Assembly (NCBI GenBank): GCA_964510025.1
Contig: CAZDZV010000001.1
Coordinates: 63,949-127,948 of the forward strand
DNA length: 64,000 nucleotides
Origin: an uncultured Methanosarcinales archaeon
GTDB taxonomy: Archaea > Nanobdellota > Nanobdellia > Woesearchaeales > DATDXC01
Reading direction: 5' to 3'
Shown here: piece after piece, positions 10,452-64,000 of the stretch
Layout: every line of letters starts with the position of its first letter
Numbering within the stretch: position 1 is the first letter of the stretch
Made by a program: the position numbers and the translations under genes
The notes under the pieces: generated by a model
What the model saw: only the letters and a program-made list of their open reading frames with translations
Databases searched by the model: none
Told to the model about the DNA's origin: nothing

Positions 10452-10687
10452 GTAACATCACCTTCAAGAACTTGTTTATCACAACTATCGTTTTTATCCC
10501 CGGGTTAAAAGGAATGTTTTAAAGTTTATAAACTTTTTCATTATTTACTACTTAATAATGTTAACTTCCTCTAATAGAAAACAAGTGCAACCGCCTAGAT
10601 ACCGTTATCCAATTTCTGAAAGTACCTGGACTCCAAGAATAACATTCTTCTGCTATGCCCAAGAATGAAAACTTTGTGGAAATAAAA

Positions 10688-10837
10688 CGCGCCTGCGAAG
10701 ATTCGAACTCCGGACCTAATGCTTACTTCTAAAGCGAAGCTTGCACGATTGCAAAGCTTTGCTCTGAAATAGGAGGCATTCGCTCTTTTTGTCCCTGCGG
10801 CAACAGCAGCAGGAAATCCAAGCTGAGCTACAGGCGC
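10688..10837 (-). tRNA. tRNA-Arg (anticodon CCU) with two putative introns (D-loop region and canonical 37/38)
   Basis: The reverse complement folds by hand into a cloverleaf: acceptor GCGCCUG/CAGGCGC, T-arm CGGAG-UUCGAAU-CUUCG, anticodon stem AAUGC/GCAUU with loop CUCCUA+A. It is about 150 nt, so roughly 75 nt of inserts. Confidence 0.55.
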
Positions 10838-10872
10838 ATATTCAGATGTGAGCAGTATTTTATTTAAAAAGT

Positions 10873-11577
10873 TTACCTAGAAGCCTTTCTTTTTCTGGGT
10901 TTTTTCTTGTAAACATAACCTCTCAAGAATTTTACCCCCAAATAAACAAATGGTGTATCCAGAAGGGCTACGCAAACTTTCAATGCCCAATAGGGTATAA
11001 TCAGGACAAACAAATAGGCAACATTAAATTTTGGATTTGTATTCAATGCTGCTGGAACAAACGAAAAAGGAAGGTAATAAAGGGCTATAAACATAAATAC
11101 TACTGTGTCGATAAACTGGGAGATCATAGTGGAAAGGTTATTCCTAAGCCAAAGAAACTTTCCCTTGGTCTTTTCCTTCCAGAAGTTAAATGACCAGATA
11201 TCGTGCATCTGGCTTACCAAGAATGCTATGATGCTGGCAATGAAAAACCTGATGCTTATGCCGAAAACCTTAGTATATTCTTCTGCCTGCACATAACTCC
11301 TATCAGCGTACGGCAGCCAGACTGATAAGGCTGTCATAGACAAAATGAAAAACATAGACAAGAAGCCTACCCATACGAATTGCTTTGTTTTTTCTTTGCC
11401 GTGCACTTCTGCTATGACATCTGTAATAAGAAAGGTCAGGGGATAGGCGAAAATTCCGACTGAGAATTGGACAAAACCTAGCTGTGCAATCTTTGAACCG
11501 AGCAGACTAGCTGCAACCAAAGAAGATGCAAATAACCCCAAAAAAAGATTTGTCTTGGTTTCCAGGTTCCACCTCAT
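10873..11577 (-). CDS. VUT/YhhQ-family membrane transporter (putative queuosine/7-deazaguanine precursor transporter)
   Basis: Multi-TM protein with YPLTFLITDVIAEVHGK, matching the conserved YhhQ/COG1738 ITD..E.YG block. A paralog is at 21000-21713. Confidence 0.6.
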   Translation of the reverse strand: MRWNLETKTNLFLGLFASSLVAASLLGSKIAQLGFVQFSVGIFAYPLTFLITDVIAEVHGKEKTKQFVWVGFLSMFFILSMTALSVWLPYADRSYVQAEEYTKVFGISIRFFIASIIAFLVSQMHDIWSFNFWKEKTKGKFLWLRNNLSTMISQFIDTVVFMFIALYYLPFSFVPAALNTNPKFNVAYLFVLIIPYWALKVCVALLDTPFVYLGVKFLRGYVYKKKPRKRKASR

Positions 11578-11598: not shown

Positions 11599-12369
11599 TT
11601 ATTTATAATCTTTTCTGTTAGATTTTATAAAGAAGATAAGGGCGCTGACAAATATAAGCAGATAGACTATCTGCTCTATAGTAAGCCCAAGGATAAAGCC
11701 ATATTGGTCTGCAATCTTAAAGAAACCTAGCAAAAACCTTGACAGTGAATACAGAAGCAGAAAGACCAGCAACATGGTTCCAGTCTTGCTCTTTCTTTTA
11801 GTAAGACTTAAGAGAAATAAGAAAATCATAAACAAAGCTATACTATTATAAAGCTGGACCGGATGCCGAAATCCTGCGTGAGACGGGAATTTGACAGCCC
11901 ATGGCACTGATGCTAATCTTCCTACAAATTCACTGTTGATGAAATTAGCTATCCTGCCCAAAGCTAATGCCAGAGGAAGAGGGACCACACATATGTCCAT
12001 CATCCTAAAAAAGTCCATCTTTTTTTTCTTGCAGTAAATATACAGAGCTACGATAGCGCCCAGAAAGCCGCCCAGAAATATTAGTCCGCCTTCCCAGACA
12101 GCCAATATCTTAAGAGGATTTCTGATAAAGTAAGGAATATTGTAGAAAACGAAAAAAAGCCTCGCACCTGATACTGTGCCAACTATCAAATAGAATATAA
12201 GGTCCATAATCTCATCCTTATCCAGATCTATCTTTTTCCGGCTGACTAAGTTCCTGATCATGAAATACGCGATTATGAAACCCAAAGCATAGATTACGCC
12301 ATAATACCTAATCTCCAGAAATCCAATTTTCAAAAGAGTTGGATTAATGCTATGGATGAACACCTTCAA
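11599..12369 (-). CDS. lgt: Prolipoprotein diacylglyceryl transferase homolog
   Basis: Blocks align with E. coli Lgt. YGVIYALGFIIAY corresponds to YGLMYLVGFIFAM. GARLFFVFYN...ILAVWEGGLIFLGGFLGA corresponds to GGRIGYVLFYN...FRVWDGGMSFHGGLIG. LGRIANFINSEFVGR corresponds to AGRLGNFINGELWGR. HPVQLYN corresponds to HPSQLYE. Confidence 0.8.
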   Translation of the reverse strand: MKVFIHSINPTLLKIGFLEIRYYGVIYALGFIIAYFMIRNLVSRKKIDLDKDEIMDLIFYLIVGTVSGARLFFVFYNIPYFIRNPLKILAVWEGGLIFLGGFLGAIVALYIYCKKKKMDFFRMMDICVVPLPLALALGRIANFINSEFVGRLASVPWAVKFPSHAGFRHPVQLYNSIALFMIFLFLLSLTKRKSKTGTMLLVFLLLYSLSRFLLGFFKIADQYGFILGLTIEQIVYLLIFVSALIFFIKSNRKDYK

Positions 12370-21713: not shown

Positions 21714-21799
21714 CAGGTCATGTAAATCGAGCTGCTATTAAAGTTTATCGGAAAGCTTAACAATAAACTTTATAAATGCTTTTGCAAATCTCTTCATTA

Positions 21800-23545
21800 A
21801 TGAAACGGACTCATAACTGCGGCCAGTTGTCTAGAAAAGATACTGGCAAACAGGTGGCCCTGAGCGGATGGATGCATTCAAGAAGGGATCATGGAGGAAT
21901 TATCTTTGTGGACCTGAGAGACAGGTATGGGCTTACCCAGGTCGTCTTTGATCCCAAACACAATAAACAAGTGCATGCCGAAGCAGAGCATCTTAGGCGG
22001 GAAGATGTCATCATCGTAGAAGGAAAAGTCAGACCCAGAGGCAAAGGACTGGAGAATCCTAAGCTAAAAACAGGTGAGATTGAAGTCCTGGTGGATAAGT
22101 TAACTGTAGTAACGAGAGCTGAAACGCCGCCCATCGAGATAGATGATAAGAAGATTGCCAATGAAGACGTCAGGCTAAGATATAGGTATCTTGATCTAAG
22201 AAGACCTCAGATGCAGAAGCATTTGAGAATAAGGCATGAAGCTGCGCAGGCTGCCAGGGAATTCTTCAACAAAAATGGTTTTTTAGAGATAGAGACCCCT
22301 ATTCTTGTGAGGGCAACCCCAGAAGGGGCCAGGGACTATGTGGTTCCATCAAGAGTTAGTCCTGGAAAATTTTATGCTCTTCCACAAAGCCCTCAGCTAT
22401 ACAAGCAGATATTGATGATTTCAGGTGTTGACAGGTATTATCAGATCGCAAGATGCCTAAGGGATGAAGATCTGAGAGCTGACAGACAGCCAGAGCATAC
22501 CCAGATAGACCTAGAAATGAGCTTTGTTGATGAGAAGGATATAATGGAAACTGTTGAAAGTATGTACAAACATATCTTCAAAAAAGTATTGAAAATAGAA
22601 CTAAGAGAAAAATTTCCGATTTTTAGCTATAAGGAAGTGATGGATCGTTACGGGACAGATAAACCTGATATAAGATTTGGGCTTGAGTTAAAGGATGTTA
22701 GCTCTGTTGTTGCCAGATCAGATTTCACTGTTTTTAAGGATGCAATAAAGAAAGGAGGGGTAGTCAAGTGCATAAATCCTGAAAAGGAAATCTCCCGAAA
22801 AGAGATAGACAGCCTTATTGAACTAGCGCAGCAGTGCGGAGCAAAAGGCATGGCATGGATGCGGGTTACAGAAAAAGGGCTAGAGAGCAATATTGCAAAA
22901 TATTTCAATGAAGAAATACAGAAAGATCTGATTAAGCTAACAGAGGCTAAACCGGGCTCTGTCTTGATGTTTGTTGCAGATAAGGAGAAAACCTCTAATG
23001 AGGTCCTCTCTGCCTTAAGAAAAGAGCTTGGTAAAAGACTTGGTTTAATCGACGAAAAAGAGTTTCGGTTCTGCTGGATAGTAGATTATCCTTTGTTTGA
23101 GAGGGATGAGGATAGTTGGACACCTGCCCACCATATGTTTTCGATGCCCAAGGAAGAATGCTTAGGATACCTAGAGAAGGAGCCCGGCAAGGTGACAGCC
23201 AACCTATTCGATATTGTCCTGAACGGCAGTGAACTAGGCTCAGGCAGCATGAGAATTCATGACCCAGAGGTACAGGAGAAGGTTATGAAGGTCATTGGAT
23301 TATCACATGAAGAAGCGCAGAAGAAATTTGGTTTTTTGCTGGAAGCATATAGATACGGAGCACCTATGCATGGTGGTATGGGGCTGGGATTCGATAGATT
23401 GGTAGCTATAATGCTTGGTTATGATGATATCAGAGAAGTAATTGCCTTTCCAAAAAACAAGAATGCTGAATGCCCTATGGATGGCTCGCCTTCTCAAATT
23501 GACCCAGAACAGCTCAAAGATCTGCATATAAAGACAACTAAGTAG
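21800..23545 (+). CDS. aspS: Aspartyl-tRNA synthetase, bacterial-type length (with GAD-like insertion)
   Basis: MKRTHNCGQL start resembling bacterial MRTHYCG. Class II motifs. About 580 aa, compared with about 430 aa for typical archaeal AspRS. Confidence 0.85.
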   Translation: MKRTHNCGQLSRKDTGKQVALSGWMHSRRDHGGIIFVDLRDRYGLTQVVFDPKHNKQVHAEAEHLRREDVIIVEGKVRPRGKGLENPKLKTGEIEVLVDKLTVVTRAETPPIEIDDKKIANEDVRLRYRYLDLRRPQMQKHLRIRHEAAQAAREFFNKNGFLEIETPILVRATPEGARDYVVPSRVSPGKFYALPQSPQLYKQILMISGVDRYYQIARCLRDEDLRADRQPEHTQIDLEMSFVDEKDIMETVESMYKHIFKKVLKIELREKFPIFSYKEVMDRYGTDKPDIRFGLELKDVSSVVARSDFTVFKDAIKKGGVVKCINPEKEISRKEIDSLIELAQQCGAKGMAWMRVTEKGLESNIAKYFNEEIQKDLIKLTEAKPGSVLMFVADKEKTSNEVLSALRKELGKRLGLIDEKEFRFCWIVDYPLFERDEDSWTPAHHMFSMPKEECLGYLEKEPGKVTANLFDIVLNGSELGSGSMRIHDPEVQEKVMKVIGLSHEEAQKKFGFLLEAYRYGAPMHGGMGLGFDRLVAIMLGYDDIREVIAFPKNKNAECPMDGSPSQIDPEQLKDLHIKTTK

Positions 23546-27108: not shown

Positions 27109-27645
27109 ATGAGACTTTTTATTGGGATTGACTTTCACAAGGAAGCCTATTATCTCAAAGGACTGCAGAATATAATAAACATGTGTTCGGCCACGCTAAA
27201 GCTTACAGGTTCGTTTCATCTTACCCTAAAGTTTTTAGGAGAGGTCCCTGAAAAAAGCATCCCCCTGATTAAGGAACAGCTTGAATCTGTCAATTTCAGC
27301 AGTTTTTACGTAAATTTGGATGGAATCGGGTTCTTTCCGAACCAAAACTGCGCCAGGGTTCTTTGGGTAGGGATCAAGCCACAAGAAAAGATTGTTGAGC
27401 TGCAACAGAAGATAGAAAGTTCTTTAGAAAAATTCAATTTTAAAAGAGATTACAAATTCCATCCACACATTACTATAGCTAGGATTAAGACTATAATCAA
27501 CCAGGATAGATTGCTGGAAAGCATACAAAGGGCTGATATCAAGAAGGTCACGAAAAAAATCAGCTCTTTTCGGCTGGTACAAAGCGAATTAACCCAAAAA
27601 GGCCCTATTTATAAGGATCTGGCTGTCTTTGGTTCTAAAGAATAG
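27109..27645 (+). CDS. ligT: RNA 2',3'-cyclic phosphodiesterase / 2'-5' RNA ligase (LigT, 2H family)
   Basis: Two HxT/S motifs, HLTLKFLG and HPHITIAR. Confidence 0.75.
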   Translation: MRLFIGIDFHKEAYYLKGLQNIINMCSATLKLTGSFHLTLKFLGEVPEKSIPLIKEQLESVNFSSFYVNLDGIGFFPNQNCARVLWVGIKPQEKIVELQQKIESSLEKFNFKRDYKFHPHITIARIKTIINQDRLLESIQRADIKKVTKKISSFRLVQSELTQKGPIYKDLAVFGSKE

Positions 27646-50885: not shown

Positions 50886-50969
50886 GCGAGGGTGCCGGAG
50901 TGGTCAAACGGGCACGGTTGAGGGCCGTGTGGCTTAGTGCCTGCGCGAGTTCAAACCTCGTCCCTCGCA
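50886..50969 (+). tRNA. tRNA-Leu (anticodon GAG), class II with long variable arm
   Basis: Acceptor GCGAGGG/CCCUCGC, anticodon stem CACGG/CCGUG with loop UUGAGGG, variable arm UGGCUUAGUGCCUGC, T-arm GCGAG-UUCAAAC-CUCGU. 84 nt. Confidence 0.75.
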
Positions 50970-52586: not shown

Positions 52587-55232
52587 ATGGGTATGGTTAA
52601 TTTTAACAAAATATCGAAGAAATGGCAGAAAAGGTGGGAAGATGCTGGTATATTCCATACCAAAGTCGATCCTAAGAAAAATAAGTTATATGTTCTTGAA
52701 ATGTACCCATACCCCAGCGGGTCTGGTTTGCATATGGGGCATGCACGCAACTATTGCATAGGGGATGCCTTTGCCAGATTCAAGAGGATGCGGGGATTTA
52801 ATGTTCTCTATCCAATGGGATATGACAGCTTTGGTTTGCCTGCTGAAAATGCTGCCATAAAAGCTAAATCTCATCCGAAGATATTCACTGAAAAAGCTAT
52901 AAAGAATTTCCAGAAACAGCAAAAAGCACTGGGCTTAAGCTATGACTGGAACAGGATGATTATGTCCCATGATCCTGCATACTACAGATGGGACCAATGG
53001 ATATTTCTCAAAATGTATGAAAAGGGTCTTGCCTACAAGAGGAAAGCTACGGTGAATTGGTGTCCAAAGTGCAATACGGTGCTGGCTAACGAGCAGGTAC
53101 ATAATGGAAAATGCTGGCGGCATACTGATACCCAAGTTGAGTTTAAAGAGCTAAACCAGTGGTTTTTAAAGATTACTGCCTACGCTGATGAGCTCCTGGA
53201 CGATATACCTAACCTTAACTGGAATGAGGATGTAAAGACAATGCAGAAAAACTGGATAGGAAAGAGTAAAGGAACCCTTATCCATTTTCCTGTCGTAGAT
53301 AAAGAAAAAACACTCACAGTTTTTACCACAAGACCGGACACATTTTTTGGAATCACCTTTTTGGTGTATGCGCCGGAGCATCCAGACGTGCTGCAGCTAG
53401 TGGAAGGCACAGAATATGAGCAGAAGGTCCGGGCATTCATCAGCAAAGTCATGGCGCAAGATAGATTTGATAGAACTGCGGAAGATAAAGAAAAAGAAGG
53501 TATGTTCATAGGACAGTATGCGATAAACCCCGTAACAAAGGAAAAAATCCCGATTTATATAGCAAATTTTGTCCTATACGAGTATGGGACCGGCGCTATT
53601 ATAGCGGTTCCTGCCCATGACCAAAGGGATTTTGAATTTGCCAAGAAATACAATCTTCCAATAAAGGTAGTGATAAACCCTCCGGACTACGATCTTAATG
53701 CTGACAAAATGGCAAGGGCATATATTGGAAGCGGCAACATGGTTAATTCTGCCCAATTTGATGGAATGAACAATATAGACGCAATAAATGAAATAACAAA
53801 ATTTCTGCAAGAGAAAGGCTACGGGAAATTTACCACACAATACAGACTCAGAGACTGGCTTATATCAAGGCAGAGATTCTGGGGCTGCCCTATTCCAATT
53901 GTCTATTGTGACAAATGCGGAACAGTTGCTGTAAATGAAAACGAGCTTCCAGTTAGGCTTCCGGATGACGTAAAATTCACCAGTGCCAAAAATCCCCTTA
54001 TTGAGCACGAAAATTTTGTAAATACTGATTGCCCAAAATGCGGAGGAAATGCGAAGAGAGAAACAGATACAATGGACACATTTATTGACTCTTCCTGGTA
54101 TTACCTAAGATACTGCGATCCTAATAACAACAGACAGGCTTTTAATCCTGAAAAGGCAGCCTACTGGATGCCAATAGACATGTACATAGGGGGAAAAGAG
54201 CATGCCACTATGCACCTCATATATTTCAGATTCTTCACCAAATTTCTGCGAGATATTGGAATGGTCAAAATTGATGAACCTGCTTTAAATCTGTTTAACC
54301 AGGGCATGCTCCATAAGAATGGGGTTGTTATGAGCAAAAGTAAGGGAAATGTCGTAACGCAGGAAGAGATCTCAGAGAAGTATGGTATAGATACTGCTCG
54401 TTTTTTCCTGCTTTTTGTCGCAGCACCGGATAAGGATATGGAATGGGATGACAAAGGAATCGAAGGCGCATATAGGTTCCTAAAAAAGCTCTATTATCTG
54501 GTTGACACAAAGGATAGAGTTAAGAAGGAAATAAAAATTCAGGAGACCAAGATTCACAAAACAGTGAAGGATGTGACTGAATATATAAATAATTTCAACT
54601 ATAACAAAGCCCTGATTAGGATAATGGAGACCGTAAATTACATCCATAATGAGGAGAAAATAAGCCAGGATATAATTGAAAAACTAATCTTGATTTTAAG
54701 CCCCTTCACCCCCCATATTTGTGAGGAACTTTGGGAGAGGATTGGCAGGAACGGTTTTGTATCGAATCATGAGTGGCCCGAGTATGACGAAGAGAAAATC
54801 GACACTACACTAGAAGCACAGGAAGGTATCATTGATCAGACATTGGCGGATATAAGATCTGTAATAGAGCTGGCAGACATTGAGCCGAAGAATATCACTT
54901 TGATCATGGCTTCTGCCTGGAAATATGATGTCTTTAGGAAGATCAAGGATAAATTAGAGAAAACAAGAAATATAAGTGAGATAATAAAAGACGTAAAGGA
55001 TGGAAAGCATGATAAGGAGATAGCACAATTCGTGCAGAAGGCTATTAAAAATCCAGCGAAATTGCCTGAATATATATTGTCCCCGGAAGAGGAGATTGAT
55101 GCTTTAAGCAGAGCTAAGGATAAGATATCGAGCATATTTAAATGTGATGTTGAAGTTAAAGTTGCCGAAGAATCAGAAAGTCCAAAAGCAAAGAGTGCGG
55201 CTCCTTACAAGCCTGCGATTGTGGTATCCTAA
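52587..55232 (+). CDS. leuS: Leucyl-tRNA synthetase (archaeal type)
   Basis: HMGHARNY (HIGH), KMSKS variant VMSKSKGN, CP1 editing domain. 881 aa. Confidence 0.9.
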   Translation: MGMVNFNKISKKWQKRWEDAGIFHTKVDPKKNKLYVLEMYPYPSGSGLHMGHARNYCIGDAFARFKRMRGFNVLYPMGYDSFGLPAENAAIKAKSHPKIFTEKAIKNFQKQQKALGLSYDWNRMIMSHDPAYYRWDQWIFLKMYEKGLAYKRKATVNWCPKCNTVLANEQVHNGKCWRHTDTQVEFKELNQWFLKITAYADELLDDIPNLNWNEDVKTMQKNWIGKSKGTLIHFPVVDKEKTLTVFTTRPDTFFGITFLVYAPEHPDVLQLVEGTEYEQKVRAFISKVMAQDRFDRTAEDKEKEGMFIGQYAINPVTKEKIPIYIANFVLYEYGTGAIIAVPAHDQRDFEFAKKYNLPIKVVINPPDYDLNADKMARAYIGSGNMVNSAQFDGMNNIDAINEITKFLQEKGYGKFTTQYRLRDWLISRQRFWGCPIPIVYCDKCGTVAVNENELPVRLPDDVKFTSAKNPLIEHENFVNTDCPKCGGNAKRETDTMDTFIDSSWYYLRYCDPNNNRQAFNPEKAAYWMPIDMYIGGKEHATMHLIYFRFFTKFLRDIGMVKIDEPALNLFNQGMLHKNGVVMSKSKGNVVTQEEISEKYGIDTARFFLLFVAAPDKDMEWDDKGIEGAYRFLKKLYYLVDTKDRVKKEIKIQETKIHKTVKDVTEYINNFNYNKALIRIMETVNYIHNEEKISQDIIEKLILILSPFTPHICEELWERIGRNGFVSNHEWPEYDEEKIDTTLEAQEGIIDQTLADIRSVIELADIEPKNITLIMASAWKYDVFRKIKDKLEKTRNISEIIKDVKDGKHDKEIAQFVQKAIKNPAKLPEYILSPEEEIDALSRAKDKISSIFKCDVEVKVAEESESPKAKSAAPYKPAIVVS

Positions 55233-59822: not shown

Positions 59823-59917
59823 CTTAATGAACGGGCCGAAAGGATCGAGCTTAGCCTCCTTGCTTCTCCAATAAATGCCATCTTTGATGCCTTGAACCGC
59901 TCGATTCAGGAATAAAA

Positions 59918-60035
59918 CGGGCCTGGGAAGATTCGAACTCCCGACCTTCAGCTTACTTCTTAGGATAGAAGGCTGCCGCTCTTTTTGTTCCTACAAGCTT
60001 CGCTCAATAGGATATCCAAACTGAGCTACAGGCCC
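59918..60035 (-). tRNA. tRNA-Arg (anticodon UCU) with two putative introns
   Basis: The reverse complement has acceptor GGGCCUG/CAGGCCC, T-arm GGGAG-UUCGAAU-CUUCC, anticodon stem GCAGC/GCUGA with loop CUUCUA+A. The architecture and D-region insert (UCCU..AGGAACAAAAAGAGCG) parallel the tRNA at 10688-10837. Confidence 0.55.
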
Positions 60036-60239
60036 ATAGAGCTGAGAATAAGAGTTTCATATTTAAATCTTATTGTAAAGGCATTTGGGAAGCATCGGTC
60101 ACTTTTTGGGTACATTTTTTCTTTCGTTCCCAATATACCCAGCAGTTCTTTCCAAATTTCTCCCAATTAATACAGCCTTCGCAGCATTTAGGTACTTCTT
60201 CTGCCATAGGTCATGGAAACAAAAATTTATTTAAAAAAT

Positions 60240-63540: not shown

Positions 63541-64000
63541 TTAAGTTTTGTTGTTAATCAATCTGATAATTCTTTCTTCGTCATCATATACTTTGATCTT
63601 TCGGAAGAAGGCCAGGACATTCCTAATGTCCCTCTGTAGAAATTCTTGCGCTCTGGGGCTGTTTATAGGCACGCATTGTGAGAAATCTATGAAAACGGGT
63701 TTTTCATCAAAATTTAGTATGTTGAATGAAGATAGGTCAGCGTGCACCAATCCTGCCCTGTACATCCTTACAATATTCTGGATGATGTCATCAAGAAATT
63801 TGAGCGGCTCCTCTGGAGGCTTATCCTTAAGCCGTGGTGCAATCTCGGCTTTTCGTCCTATAAATTCAAGAAGAAGAATATTGTTCTTGAACGTAATCGG
63901 CAAAGGCACGCTAACGTTTCCTGCCCTTGCCTTAAGCAGGTTTCGGTATTCACGCTGAACCCAGGCAAATATTATCTTCCTTTTTTTGCCCCTGAGCCCT
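63541..64000 (-). CDS. RIO-type serine kinase, partial (N-terminus beyond window end)
   Basis: Catalytic loop LVHADLSSFNIL and metal-binding IDFSQ. I translated the frame upstream by hand and it stays open to position 64000 (…WVQREYRNLLKARAGNVSVPLP…). The ORF-track Met at 63909 is actually a GTG codon. Confidence 0.7.
   Translation of the reverse strand, partial: GLRGKKRKIIFAWVQREYRNLLKARAGNVSVPLPITFKNNILLLEFIGRKAEIAPRLKDKPPEEPLKFLDDIIQNIVRMYRAGLVHADLSSFNILNFDEKPVFIDFSQCVPINSPRAQEFLQRDIRNVLAFFRKIKVYDDEERIIRLINNKT

Follow-up and report, generated by a model that had tools for sequence, protein, structure and literature searches.

Two interrupted tRNA-Arg loci

The window, by which we mean the whole 64-kb stretch of contig CAZDZV010000001.1 analysed here (positions 63,949 to 127,948), carries on its minus strand two loci that we read, at a probability of roughly 0.87, as functional archaeal tRNA-Arg genes with the anticodons CCU and UCU, the precursor of each containing two short introns. 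The CCU gene (gene 1) runs from 10837 to 10688 (150 nt) and the UCU gene (gene 2) from 60035 to 59918 (118 nt); removal of two inserts, one in the D-loop and one at the canonical site between nucleotides 37 and 38 (37/38), leaves a 75-nt cloverleaf in both cases. An earlier sequence-only reading had proposed the two genes with these same ends and lengths, one insert at 37/38 and another inside the D-arm. Ends and lengths proved exact, and ARAGORN bore out both inserts, their removal giving 75-nt tRNA-Arg(CCU) and tRNA-Arg(UCU); the D-arm insert can now be placed more precisely, in the D-loop between positions 20a and 21 (20a/21) and not in the stem. Both genes open with GCGCCUG (gene 1) or GGGCCUG (gene 2) followed by UA-GCUC-AG(C/U)UUGGAU, and both close with the T-arm (C/G)GGAG-UUCGAAU-CUUC(G/C), a 7-nt strand complementary to the gene start, and G73.

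Both strands of the 64 kb were scanned for a 5-bp T-stem with G53-C61 and an NTYRANN T-loop, combined with a 7-bp acceptor helix within 330 nt and then U8. Just three loci were returned, namely a tRNA-Leu(GAG) at 50886-50969 and the two tRNA-Arg genes at exactly the coordinates given above; the two-locus pattern is real and not a product of chance. ARAGORN, run on the intact window with default settings, with -i and with -i0,200, called neither locus, its sole call being the tRNA-Leu. After deletion of the D-region inserts it reported tRNA-Arg(CCT) with a 46-nt intron at 37/38 and tRNA-Arg(TCT) with a 12-nt intron at the same site, and with both inserts taken out it recognized the two 75-mers as tRNA-Arg(CCT) and tRNA-Arg(TCT) at default thresholds. 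The spliced cloverleafs have a 7-bp acceptor stem, a 4-bp D-stem, a 5-bp anticodon stem and a 5-bp T-stem, with a single G27.A43 mismatch in the anticodon stem of gene 2 that is common to its orthologue L081. The invariant nucleotides U8, A14, G18-G19, A21, U33, G53-U54-U55-C56, A58 and C61 are present in both spliced sequences.

Could the same letters encode other tRNAs, a tRNA-Ser(GCU) and a tRNA-Leu(AAG), with a single long intron in each? ARAGORN at -ps90 does offer such solutions, tRNA-Ser(gct) i(36,71) at 10687-10838 and tRNA-Leu(aag) i(32,43) at 59917-60036, but it reaches them only with the threshold lowered from its default, in the company of seven junk calls whose introns span 283-2004 nt, whereas the two-intron Arg solution passes at default thresholds. 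In orthologues missing either intron, the Arg anticodon loop and the D-arm can be read without interruption. Those without the 37/38 intron read CU-YCU-AA directly, and the spliced CUYCUAA of the window genes matches the loops of L002, L017 and L070; the anticodon is therefore confirmed. The comparative data thus already refute the Ser and Leu folds, and the arginine anticodons originally assigned to the two genes stand.

The anatomy of gene 1 was taken from the sequence and from parsing of bulge-helix-bulge (BHB) motifs, with the ARAGORN intron call and a fold for the 37/38 insert and the T-arm/acceptor scan for the ends. Exon 1 (10816-10837) comprises the acceptor 5' strand, U8-A9, the D-stem 5' strand and D-loop nucleotides A14-U20a. 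It is followed by the 29-nt D-loop intron at 20a/21 (10787-10815, UUCCUGCUGCUGUUGCCGCAGGGACAAAA), with the intron helix UCCUGC/GCAGGG. Exon 2 (10770-10786) contains A21, the D-stem 3' strand, G26, the anticodon-stem 5' strand and C32-A37 with the anticodon CCU, and borders the canonical 37/38 intron of 46 nt (10724-10769), which forms a long hairpin. Exon 3 (10688-10723) extends from A38 through the anticodon-stem 3' strand, an AGGUC variable loop, the T-arm CGGAG-UUCGAAU-CUUCG and the acceptor 3' strand to G73.

Gene 2 was divided in the same way. Exon 1 (60014-60035) covers positions 1-20a, and the 31-nt D-loop intron at 20a/21 (59983-60013, AUCCUAUUGAGCGAAGCUUGUAGGAACAAAA) contains a helix UCCUA/UAGGA together with an inner GAA-loop hairpin. 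ARAGORN placed exon 2 (59966-59982; A21-A37, anticodon UCU) and exon 3 (59918-59953; A38-G73, its end agreeing with the T-arm/acceptor scan) on either side of a 12-nt mini-intron at 37/38 (59954-59965, UCCUAAGAAGUA), which folds as a bulge-helix-loop.

Archaeal TATA-box promoters and terminators look like a TTTAAATA box upstream and a U-tract directly after the gene. By inspection, gene 1 has this TATA-like box at 10861-10868, 24-31 nt upstream of its mature 5' end, and a terminator-like TTTTATTT tract at 10680-10687, directly after G73; gene 2 has the same box at 60060-60067 (25-32 nt upstream) and a TTTTATT tract at 59911-59917, again directly after G73, so that the common T-tract trailer described earlier is real. 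The shared block UCCU...AGGRACAAAAAGAGCG, on which the same description had relied for the inserts, is likewise present in both genes, as TCCTGC...GCAGGGACAAAAAGAGCG in gene 1 and TCCTAT...GTAGGAACAAAAAGAGCG in gene 2; its final six bases, AGAGCG, are however exon (A21, the D-stem 3' strand and G26).

The D-loop insert and its helices

The same D-loop insert occurs in 14 distinct tRNA-Arg(YCU) genes, the two in the window and 12 from related Woesearchaeales that were collected by synteny and by pattern scans. The scans contributed tRNA-Arg(CCU) and tRNA-Arg(UCU) genes at L017, L019 (identical to L078), L021, L056, L062, L059, L065 (identical to L074), L067, L069, L070 and L072. A scan of the genome collection gave 42 matches, of which four were true tRNA-Arg genes (L017, L019, L021 and L027, the last being the same as L002); the others were chance matches in bacteria or unrelated archaea, 24 of the 42 having been inspected by eye and the rest assigned to bacteria from the record title. 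A metagenome scan gave 26 matches, including 11 tRNA-Arg loci with nine distinct sequences. Chance matches in the two scans were about as numerous as the information content of the patterns predicts, and nearly all were bacterial. The homologue set was thus partly chosen by sequence pattern, and because the patterns fixed the D-stem and GGA(U) and left the strands called H' and h' below free, informative variation is confined to H' and h'.

A single register fits all 14 sequences. The D-stem is followed by unpaired A14-G15-Y16, a helix H, a 3-nt bulge and a hairpin h'. In helix H, N17-U17a-G18-G19 pair with the intron bases at -6 to -3 from the intron 3' end (H'); the bulge on the 5' side consists of A20, U20a and the first intron base, and the intron hairpin h' starts immediately after it. 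Beyond H' lie the last two intron bases and A21, then the D-stem 3' strand, and the 3' cut site falls within a 3x3 internal loop opposite A14-G15-Y16, adjoining the D-stem. As modelled, the D-loop motif is a relaxed form composed of helix H, bulge and helix h' (HBh'); it agrees with the relaxed forms in the literature but departs from a strict BHB. The sequence-only reading, which saw in the insert a conserved structural (BHB) element and not junk, was thus right about conservation, found here across 14 genes and with compensatory changes in the 12 that were aligned, but went too far in the class of motif it named.

Helix H is fully paired in nine of the 14 sequences, in which H' reads CCAA, CCAT, CTAA, TCAA or CTGA. 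The remaining five have one mismatch; both window genes are among them, with an H' of ACAA and G19 facing A. In gene 1, ACAA pairs with U17-U17a-G18 and the G19.A mismatch remains. Minimum-free-energy folds of the D-arm and intron yield the D-stem, a central helix of 3-4 bp and the intron hairpin, close to the comparative register. In the window genes the central helix is shifted slightly from that register, to UUG/CAA in gene 1 and to UUUG/CAAA in gene 2, and the fold of L002 is exactly the comparative register.

For the pair count, 12 of the 14 sequences were aligned at equal length, a linker standing in for the trimmed interior of the intron; L062 was omitted as nearly identical to L056, and so was L069, which after trimming had the same row as L021. 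Standard pairs fill 87.8% of the cells, as against 34-51% when the 3' partners are slid by one to three columns. Changes on both sides were seen in 7 of 13 pairs (4.4 in shuffled alignments) and in 21 doubly changed cells (8.2 in shuffles), a degree of covariation that none of 500 shuffles reached. A compensatory change in helix H itself is provided by L059, which has ATGG/CCAT (A17-U) where other genes have TTGG/CCAA (U17-A). Helix h' is almost wholly different in sequence among the lineages and keeps its pairing, as in UCCUGC/GCAGGG, UCCUA/UAGGA, UCUUA/UAAGA, CUUCU/AGAAG and UUUC/GAAA.

Cut sites in the D-loop were predicted by carrying over a rule from the other intron. The 37/38 position of the 12-nt intron of gene 2 is fixed by tRNA structure, and there the cut falls after the second bulge base; the same rule in the D-loop makes U20a the last base before the intron and A21 the first one after it. 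This predicts a mature D-loop AGYUUGGAUA, that is, AGCUUGGAUA in the CCU gene and AGUUUGGAUA in the UCU gene. The former is identical to AGCTTGGATA, the D-loop of L005 and L081, neither of which has a D-loop intron, and the latter differs from it at position 16 only. This match to intron-less orthologues is a check independent of the pair counts.

A one- or two-base shift of the D-loop cuts away from 20a/21 is possible in the window genes: G19 faces A in both, and for gene 1 the modelled fold favours a UUG/CAA helix of 3 bp and a G-A-U bulge. The introns would then be just as real, with cuts such as GGA^U...AA^A (carets marking the cuts) and a D-loop AGCUUGGAA(A). The 3-bp register with the G-A-U bulge is the energetically preferred one, and repeated A residues blur the 3' boundary. 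Against such a shift, 9 of the 14 homologues have the full 4-bp helix in the 17-19 register, and the 20a/21 register alone reproduces the D-loop AGCUUGGAUA of the intron-less orthologues. We therefore consider shifted cuts unlikely, and keep to 20a/21.

It is scarcely credible that the insert is instead retained in the mature tRNA as an expansion hairpin of the D-loop. In favour of retention, the hairpin is stable. But with the insert in place, G18-G19, which the D-loop/T-loop elbow needs, are locked in a helix with intron bases; a 3-nt bulge followed by a 4-bp helix is the geometry of an endonuclease substrate; and close orthologues have a normal 10-nt D-loop. We know, moreover, of no tRNA that retains an expansion hairpin in its D-loop.

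The 37/38 introns of both window genes end in AGAAGUA, as does that of L019, and in the UCU genes the GAAG pairs perfectly with C32-U33-U34-C35; in gene 2 this leaves a 3' bulge of U-A-A38 next to the anticodon stem. The CCU gene L059 has GGGG instead, which pairs with CUCC. In these introns the 3' bulge and the helix are present and the 5' cut lies within a loop, which is the bulge-helix-loop (BHL) form. Two other kinds of intron were rejected. A self-splicing group I intron of the bacterial type is excluded by size, since the inserts are 12-46 nt long and two of them sit in the D-loop, whereas the ribozyme core P1-P9 typically exceeds 200 nt and occupies the anticodon loop. The 46-nt intron of gene 1 contains neither a box C (RUGAUGA) nor a box D (CUGA), as a box C/D guide RNA intron like that of euryarchaeal tRNA-Trp would.

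After splicing, the window CCU gene is identical to other CCU genes at 69 of 75 and 67 of 75 positions and to the window UCU gene at 63 of 75; the nearest UCU orthologues of gene 2 match it at 68 and 66 of 75. By these identities the CCU and UCU genes are old paralogues, and both families have the D-loop intron.

Genomic setting and intron turnover in relatives

Hundreds of relatives of the topoisomerase VI-B encoded in the window, 72-84% identical to it, bear the names Woesearchaeota, Nanoarchaeota or Nanoarchaeia, and the host is therefore a DPANN archaeon; the G+C content of the window is 41%. Gene 2 lies between the gene for topoisomerase VI-A, which is followed by a small Cys-rich open reading frame (ORF), and one for a GCD14/TrmI-type methyltransferase, and this order is kept in relatives. 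At the corresponding place L002 has a tRNA-Arg(UCU) gene with the same D-loop insert and without the 37/38 intron. The orthologues L005 (5971-6061) and L081 (5525-5615) have only a 16-nt intron at about 28/29, and L009 (6174-6275) and L080 (5563-5682) have only an intron of 26 nt and about 32 nt, respectively, at that site; these introns of 16-32 nt all lie in the anticodon stem. An unrelated D-loop intron together with a T-loop intron is found in L007 (5933-6073) and L008. In L079 and L082 synteny is lost, and no tRNA was found at that place.

Four intron sites (20a/21, ~28/29, 37/38 and the T-loop) are thus found in UCU orthologues from genomes that share 73-84% identity in topoisomerase VI-B. 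The T-loop intron, at about 59/60, has a TTCG/CGAA central helix in L021, and similar ones occur in L059 and L007. L081 has the same anticodon stem as gene 2 and a different set of introns, and intron positions must therefore change quickly in this clade.

Synteny also bears on whether the two loci are genes at all. They might be decaying tRNA pseudogenes with junk insertions, functional intron-less tRNA-Arg(YCU) genes lying elsewhere in the genome; both loci were missed by ARAGORN at default settings and by an Rfam scan, the motif helices contain mismatches (G19.A in both genes, C34.A in gene 1), and our view of the genome is limited to 64 kb. Decay is nonetheless hard to reconcile with tRNA invariants, stems, promoter box and terminator that are all intact, with an insert whose place is shared by all 14 genes and whose helices show compensatory changes in the 12 that were counted, or with the position of gene 2 at the conserved syntenic place of the relatives' only tRNA-Arg(UCU) gene. 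We consider it very unlikely that the loci are pseudogenes.

Several points do weigh against two functional genes with two introns each. Helix H in both window genes consists of three pairs and the G19.A mismatch only, and the 3' site of the D-loop intron lies in an internal loop without a clean bulge, so that the motif is weaker than in several relatives with a perfect CCAA. In gene 1, the GAAG-UA end of the 37/38 intron pairs with C32-C35 across a C34.A mismatch, leaving a 3' bulge of U-A-A38, and the minimum-free-energy fold of the anticodon arm favours a different pairing. Pfam scans of 30 ORFs found neither EndA nor RtcB in the 64-kb window, and the type of enzyme is taken from the literature on other DPANN genomes. 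In addition, we infer from structure and comparison that the introns are cut out and the exons ligated, and where exactly the cuts fall. Rfam scans of the window at the gathering threshold and at E<=1, and of 10650-10880 at E<=10, returned chance matches only. Because the same scan missed an intact tRNA as such, giving tRNA-Leu(GAG) at 50886-50969 on the plus strand only a tRNA-Sec match at 19.6 bits and no general tRNA match, this last negative is uninformative and carries no weight.

Some further features of the loci and their surroundings were recorded along the way. The Cys-rich ORF between topoisomerase VI-A and tRNA-Arg(UCU) is conserved, at 43-54 amino acids and with the motif CC..C..W..FG..CW.YWE.KK.CT, and has no Pfam hit on record; it lies at about 60060-60200 on the minus strand of the window, and at L002:6924-7082, L005:5806-5937, L009:5946-6110 and L080:5371-5502. 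A LigT/ThpR-like 2H phosphoesterase, of the '2'-5' RNA ligase' family, is encoded at 27109-27645 on the plus strand. LigT/ThpR-like enzymes act on RNA ends with 2',3'-cyclic phosphates, the type that the splicing endonuclease leaves. Three housekeeping genes of bacterial type, for an aspartyl-tRNA synthetase with a GAD domain (21776-23545, plus strand), a leucyl-tRNA synthetase with a PF13603 editing domain (52587-55232, plus strand) and the prolipoprotein diacylglyceryl transferase Lgt (11599-12369, minus strand), were probably acquired from bacteria.

Directly 3' of tRNA-Arg in five Woesearchaeales loci, L002 (7250-7385), L017, L019 (=L078), L065 (=L074) and L067, stands a structured element whose length ranges from 39 to about 135 nt. 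It ends in a direct repeat of the tRNA 3' end (8-18 nt, from about 59-66 to 73, sometimes with the terminator), and in L017 and L067 about 10-12 bp form between the repeat strand and a segment upstream of it, giving a hairpin like an acceptor/T-stem minihelix. Short motifs recur among the elements, AGGTGTCG in L002 and L019 and a GCGAAGCCCTTAGGT-like sequence in L065, L067 and L017. The element could be left over from the attachment (att) site of an integrated element, or it could be a tandem copy that has decayed or a 3' intron of an unusual kind. On the gene strand of the window no direct repeats of the tRNA 3' ends were found, and the element is absent after both window genes.

Two of the collected contigs deserve a remark. 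In L027 (CAYUUQ010000032.1), which belongs to a metagenome-assembled genome labelled Methanosarcinales, about 250 nt over tRNA-Arg and its flanks are identical to the Woesearchaeales locus L002, an identity that suggests mis-binning of the contig. The sequence GGGGGTG-TA-GCTC-AGCTTGGAT...AAAGAGTG at L073:5355-5426 (OGVY01000001.1) fits the D-insert pattern and is followed by nothing that is obviously an anticodon arm; chance may have produced the match, or it may mark one more disrupted tRNA.

Proposed processing and known systems

We propose that each gene is transcribed from its own TATA-box promoter to the T-tract as a precursor with two introns, that the tRNA-splicing endonuclease EndA would excise both, and that an RtcB-type ligase would join the exons into the 75-nt tRNA. 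For intron 1, the 5' cut would fall in the bulge formed by A20, U20a and the first intron base, and the 3' cut among the last two intron bases and A21. For intron 2, C32-C35 would pair with GAAG near the intron 3' end, U-A-A38 would form the 3' bulge, and the 5' cut would lie in the loop. The relaxed HBh' motif requires an endonuclease with broad substrate tolerance, and the host enzyme presumably cuts the D-loop and 37/38 motifs at the sites given.

A wider reading is tentative and, taken as a whole, rather doubtful. According to it, the 20a/21 intron would belong to an old isotype-specific family in both tRNA-Arg(YCU) isoacceptors of Woesearchaeales, a family that combines a checkpoint role with fast turnover and exchange between paralogues. 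The intron pairs with G18-G19 and adjoins A20, and the precursor would therefore probably be unable to form the tRNA elbow before splicing, which is speculative. A20 is an identity element for arginyl-tRNA synthetase in bacteria, and archaea may differ. That the D-loop intron serves as a maturation checkpoint, blocking folding and charging until it is removed, is a guess. The introns of the CCU gene resemble those of UCU genes, both in the ACAA strand of helix H and in the GAAG that faces C34, and this sequence likeness hints at an exchange of introns between CCU and UCU paralogues. If fast turnover were true, DPANN archaea would offer a natural system for the rapid gain, loss and movement of introns with an alpha4-type endonuclease.

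The two-intron architecture of these tRNA-Arg genes and the splicing mechanism are already known, no new mechanism is involved, and the biological surprise is for that reason modest; full-text literature searches found no description of the 20a/21 tRNA-Arg(YCU) intron family. The value of the loci lies more in annotation. DPANN and Asgard genomes have incomplete tRNA sets, and undetected disrupted genes have been suspected (PMC5829648). The two window loci are a concrete, well-supported example of such genes; since ARAGORN missed both, DPANN genomes can seem to be without tRNAs that read the arginine codons AGA and AGG. For the BHB covariance models of tRNAscan-SE 2.0 the training introns came from Crenarchaeota/Euryarchaeota and Thaumarchaeota, not from DPANN (PMC8450103, PMC4090602), and the H/bulge/h' register of the 20a/21 intron can be used as a template in DPANN intron models.

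Genes with several introns are well documented in Thermoproteales and Thaumarchaeota (PMC8450103, PMC4090602), and the window genes resemble them in having short BHB-type introns, up to three per gene in those groups, at non-canonical positions and with turnover between related genomes; their host, however, belongs to a different phylum, within DPANN. Among DPANN archaea, ARMAN-2 (Ca. Micrarchaeum) has non-canonical tRNA introns whose relaxed motifs are cut by an epsilon2 EndA (PMC3239211). The likeness to the window extends to relaxed BHB introns at non-canonical sites in a DPANN lineage, but the lineage and the endonuclease architecture are different, and there is no established link to the window's intron family. 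A survey that took in a Woesearchaeota genome reports that DPANN lineages have an alpha4 EndA with an extra L3 loop, which is associated with more disrupted tRNA genes (PMC5829648). A D-loop intron is also found in the pre-tRNA-Thr(UGU) of Aeropyrum pernix, where it is cut by the (alpha-beta)2 EndA (PMC3241643; cited in PMC5829648). As in the window genes the intron sits in the D-loop, and in A. pernix a splicing endonuclease of broad specificity removes it; unlike them, the A. pernix gene has a single intron and another isotype, and it is served by a crenarchaeal enzyme with a Crenarchaea-specific loop.

The closest counterpart is the pre-tRNA-Glu(UUC) of Methanopyrus kandleri, which has a relaxed HBh' intron at 20b/21 in the D-loop together with a canonical 37/38 intron (PMC5829648). 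The (alpha-beta)2 EndA of A. pernix splices its D-loop motif in vitro, whereas the M. kandleri enzyme itself cuts the HBh' motif inefficiently; the mature tRNA is still seen by RNA-seq (PMC5829648). Maturation in M. kandleri is thus backed by RNA-seq, whereas splicing of the window genes is predicted from sequence and comparison. Both systems combine two introns of endonuclease type, one an HBh' intron in the D-loop just before A21 and the other at 37/38. They differ in isotype (Arg rather than Glu), in the exact site (20a/21 rather than 20b/21) and in host, M. kandleri being a hyperthermophilic methanogen and the window host a DPANN archaeon with 41% G+C. By analogy with other DPANN genomes, the likely enzyme of the window host would be an alpha4 EndA with an L3 loop and not the (alpha-beta)2 form of M. 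kandleri. Finally, and unlike its counterpart in M. kandleri, the D-loop intron of the window genes is common to two isoacceptors and to many lineages.

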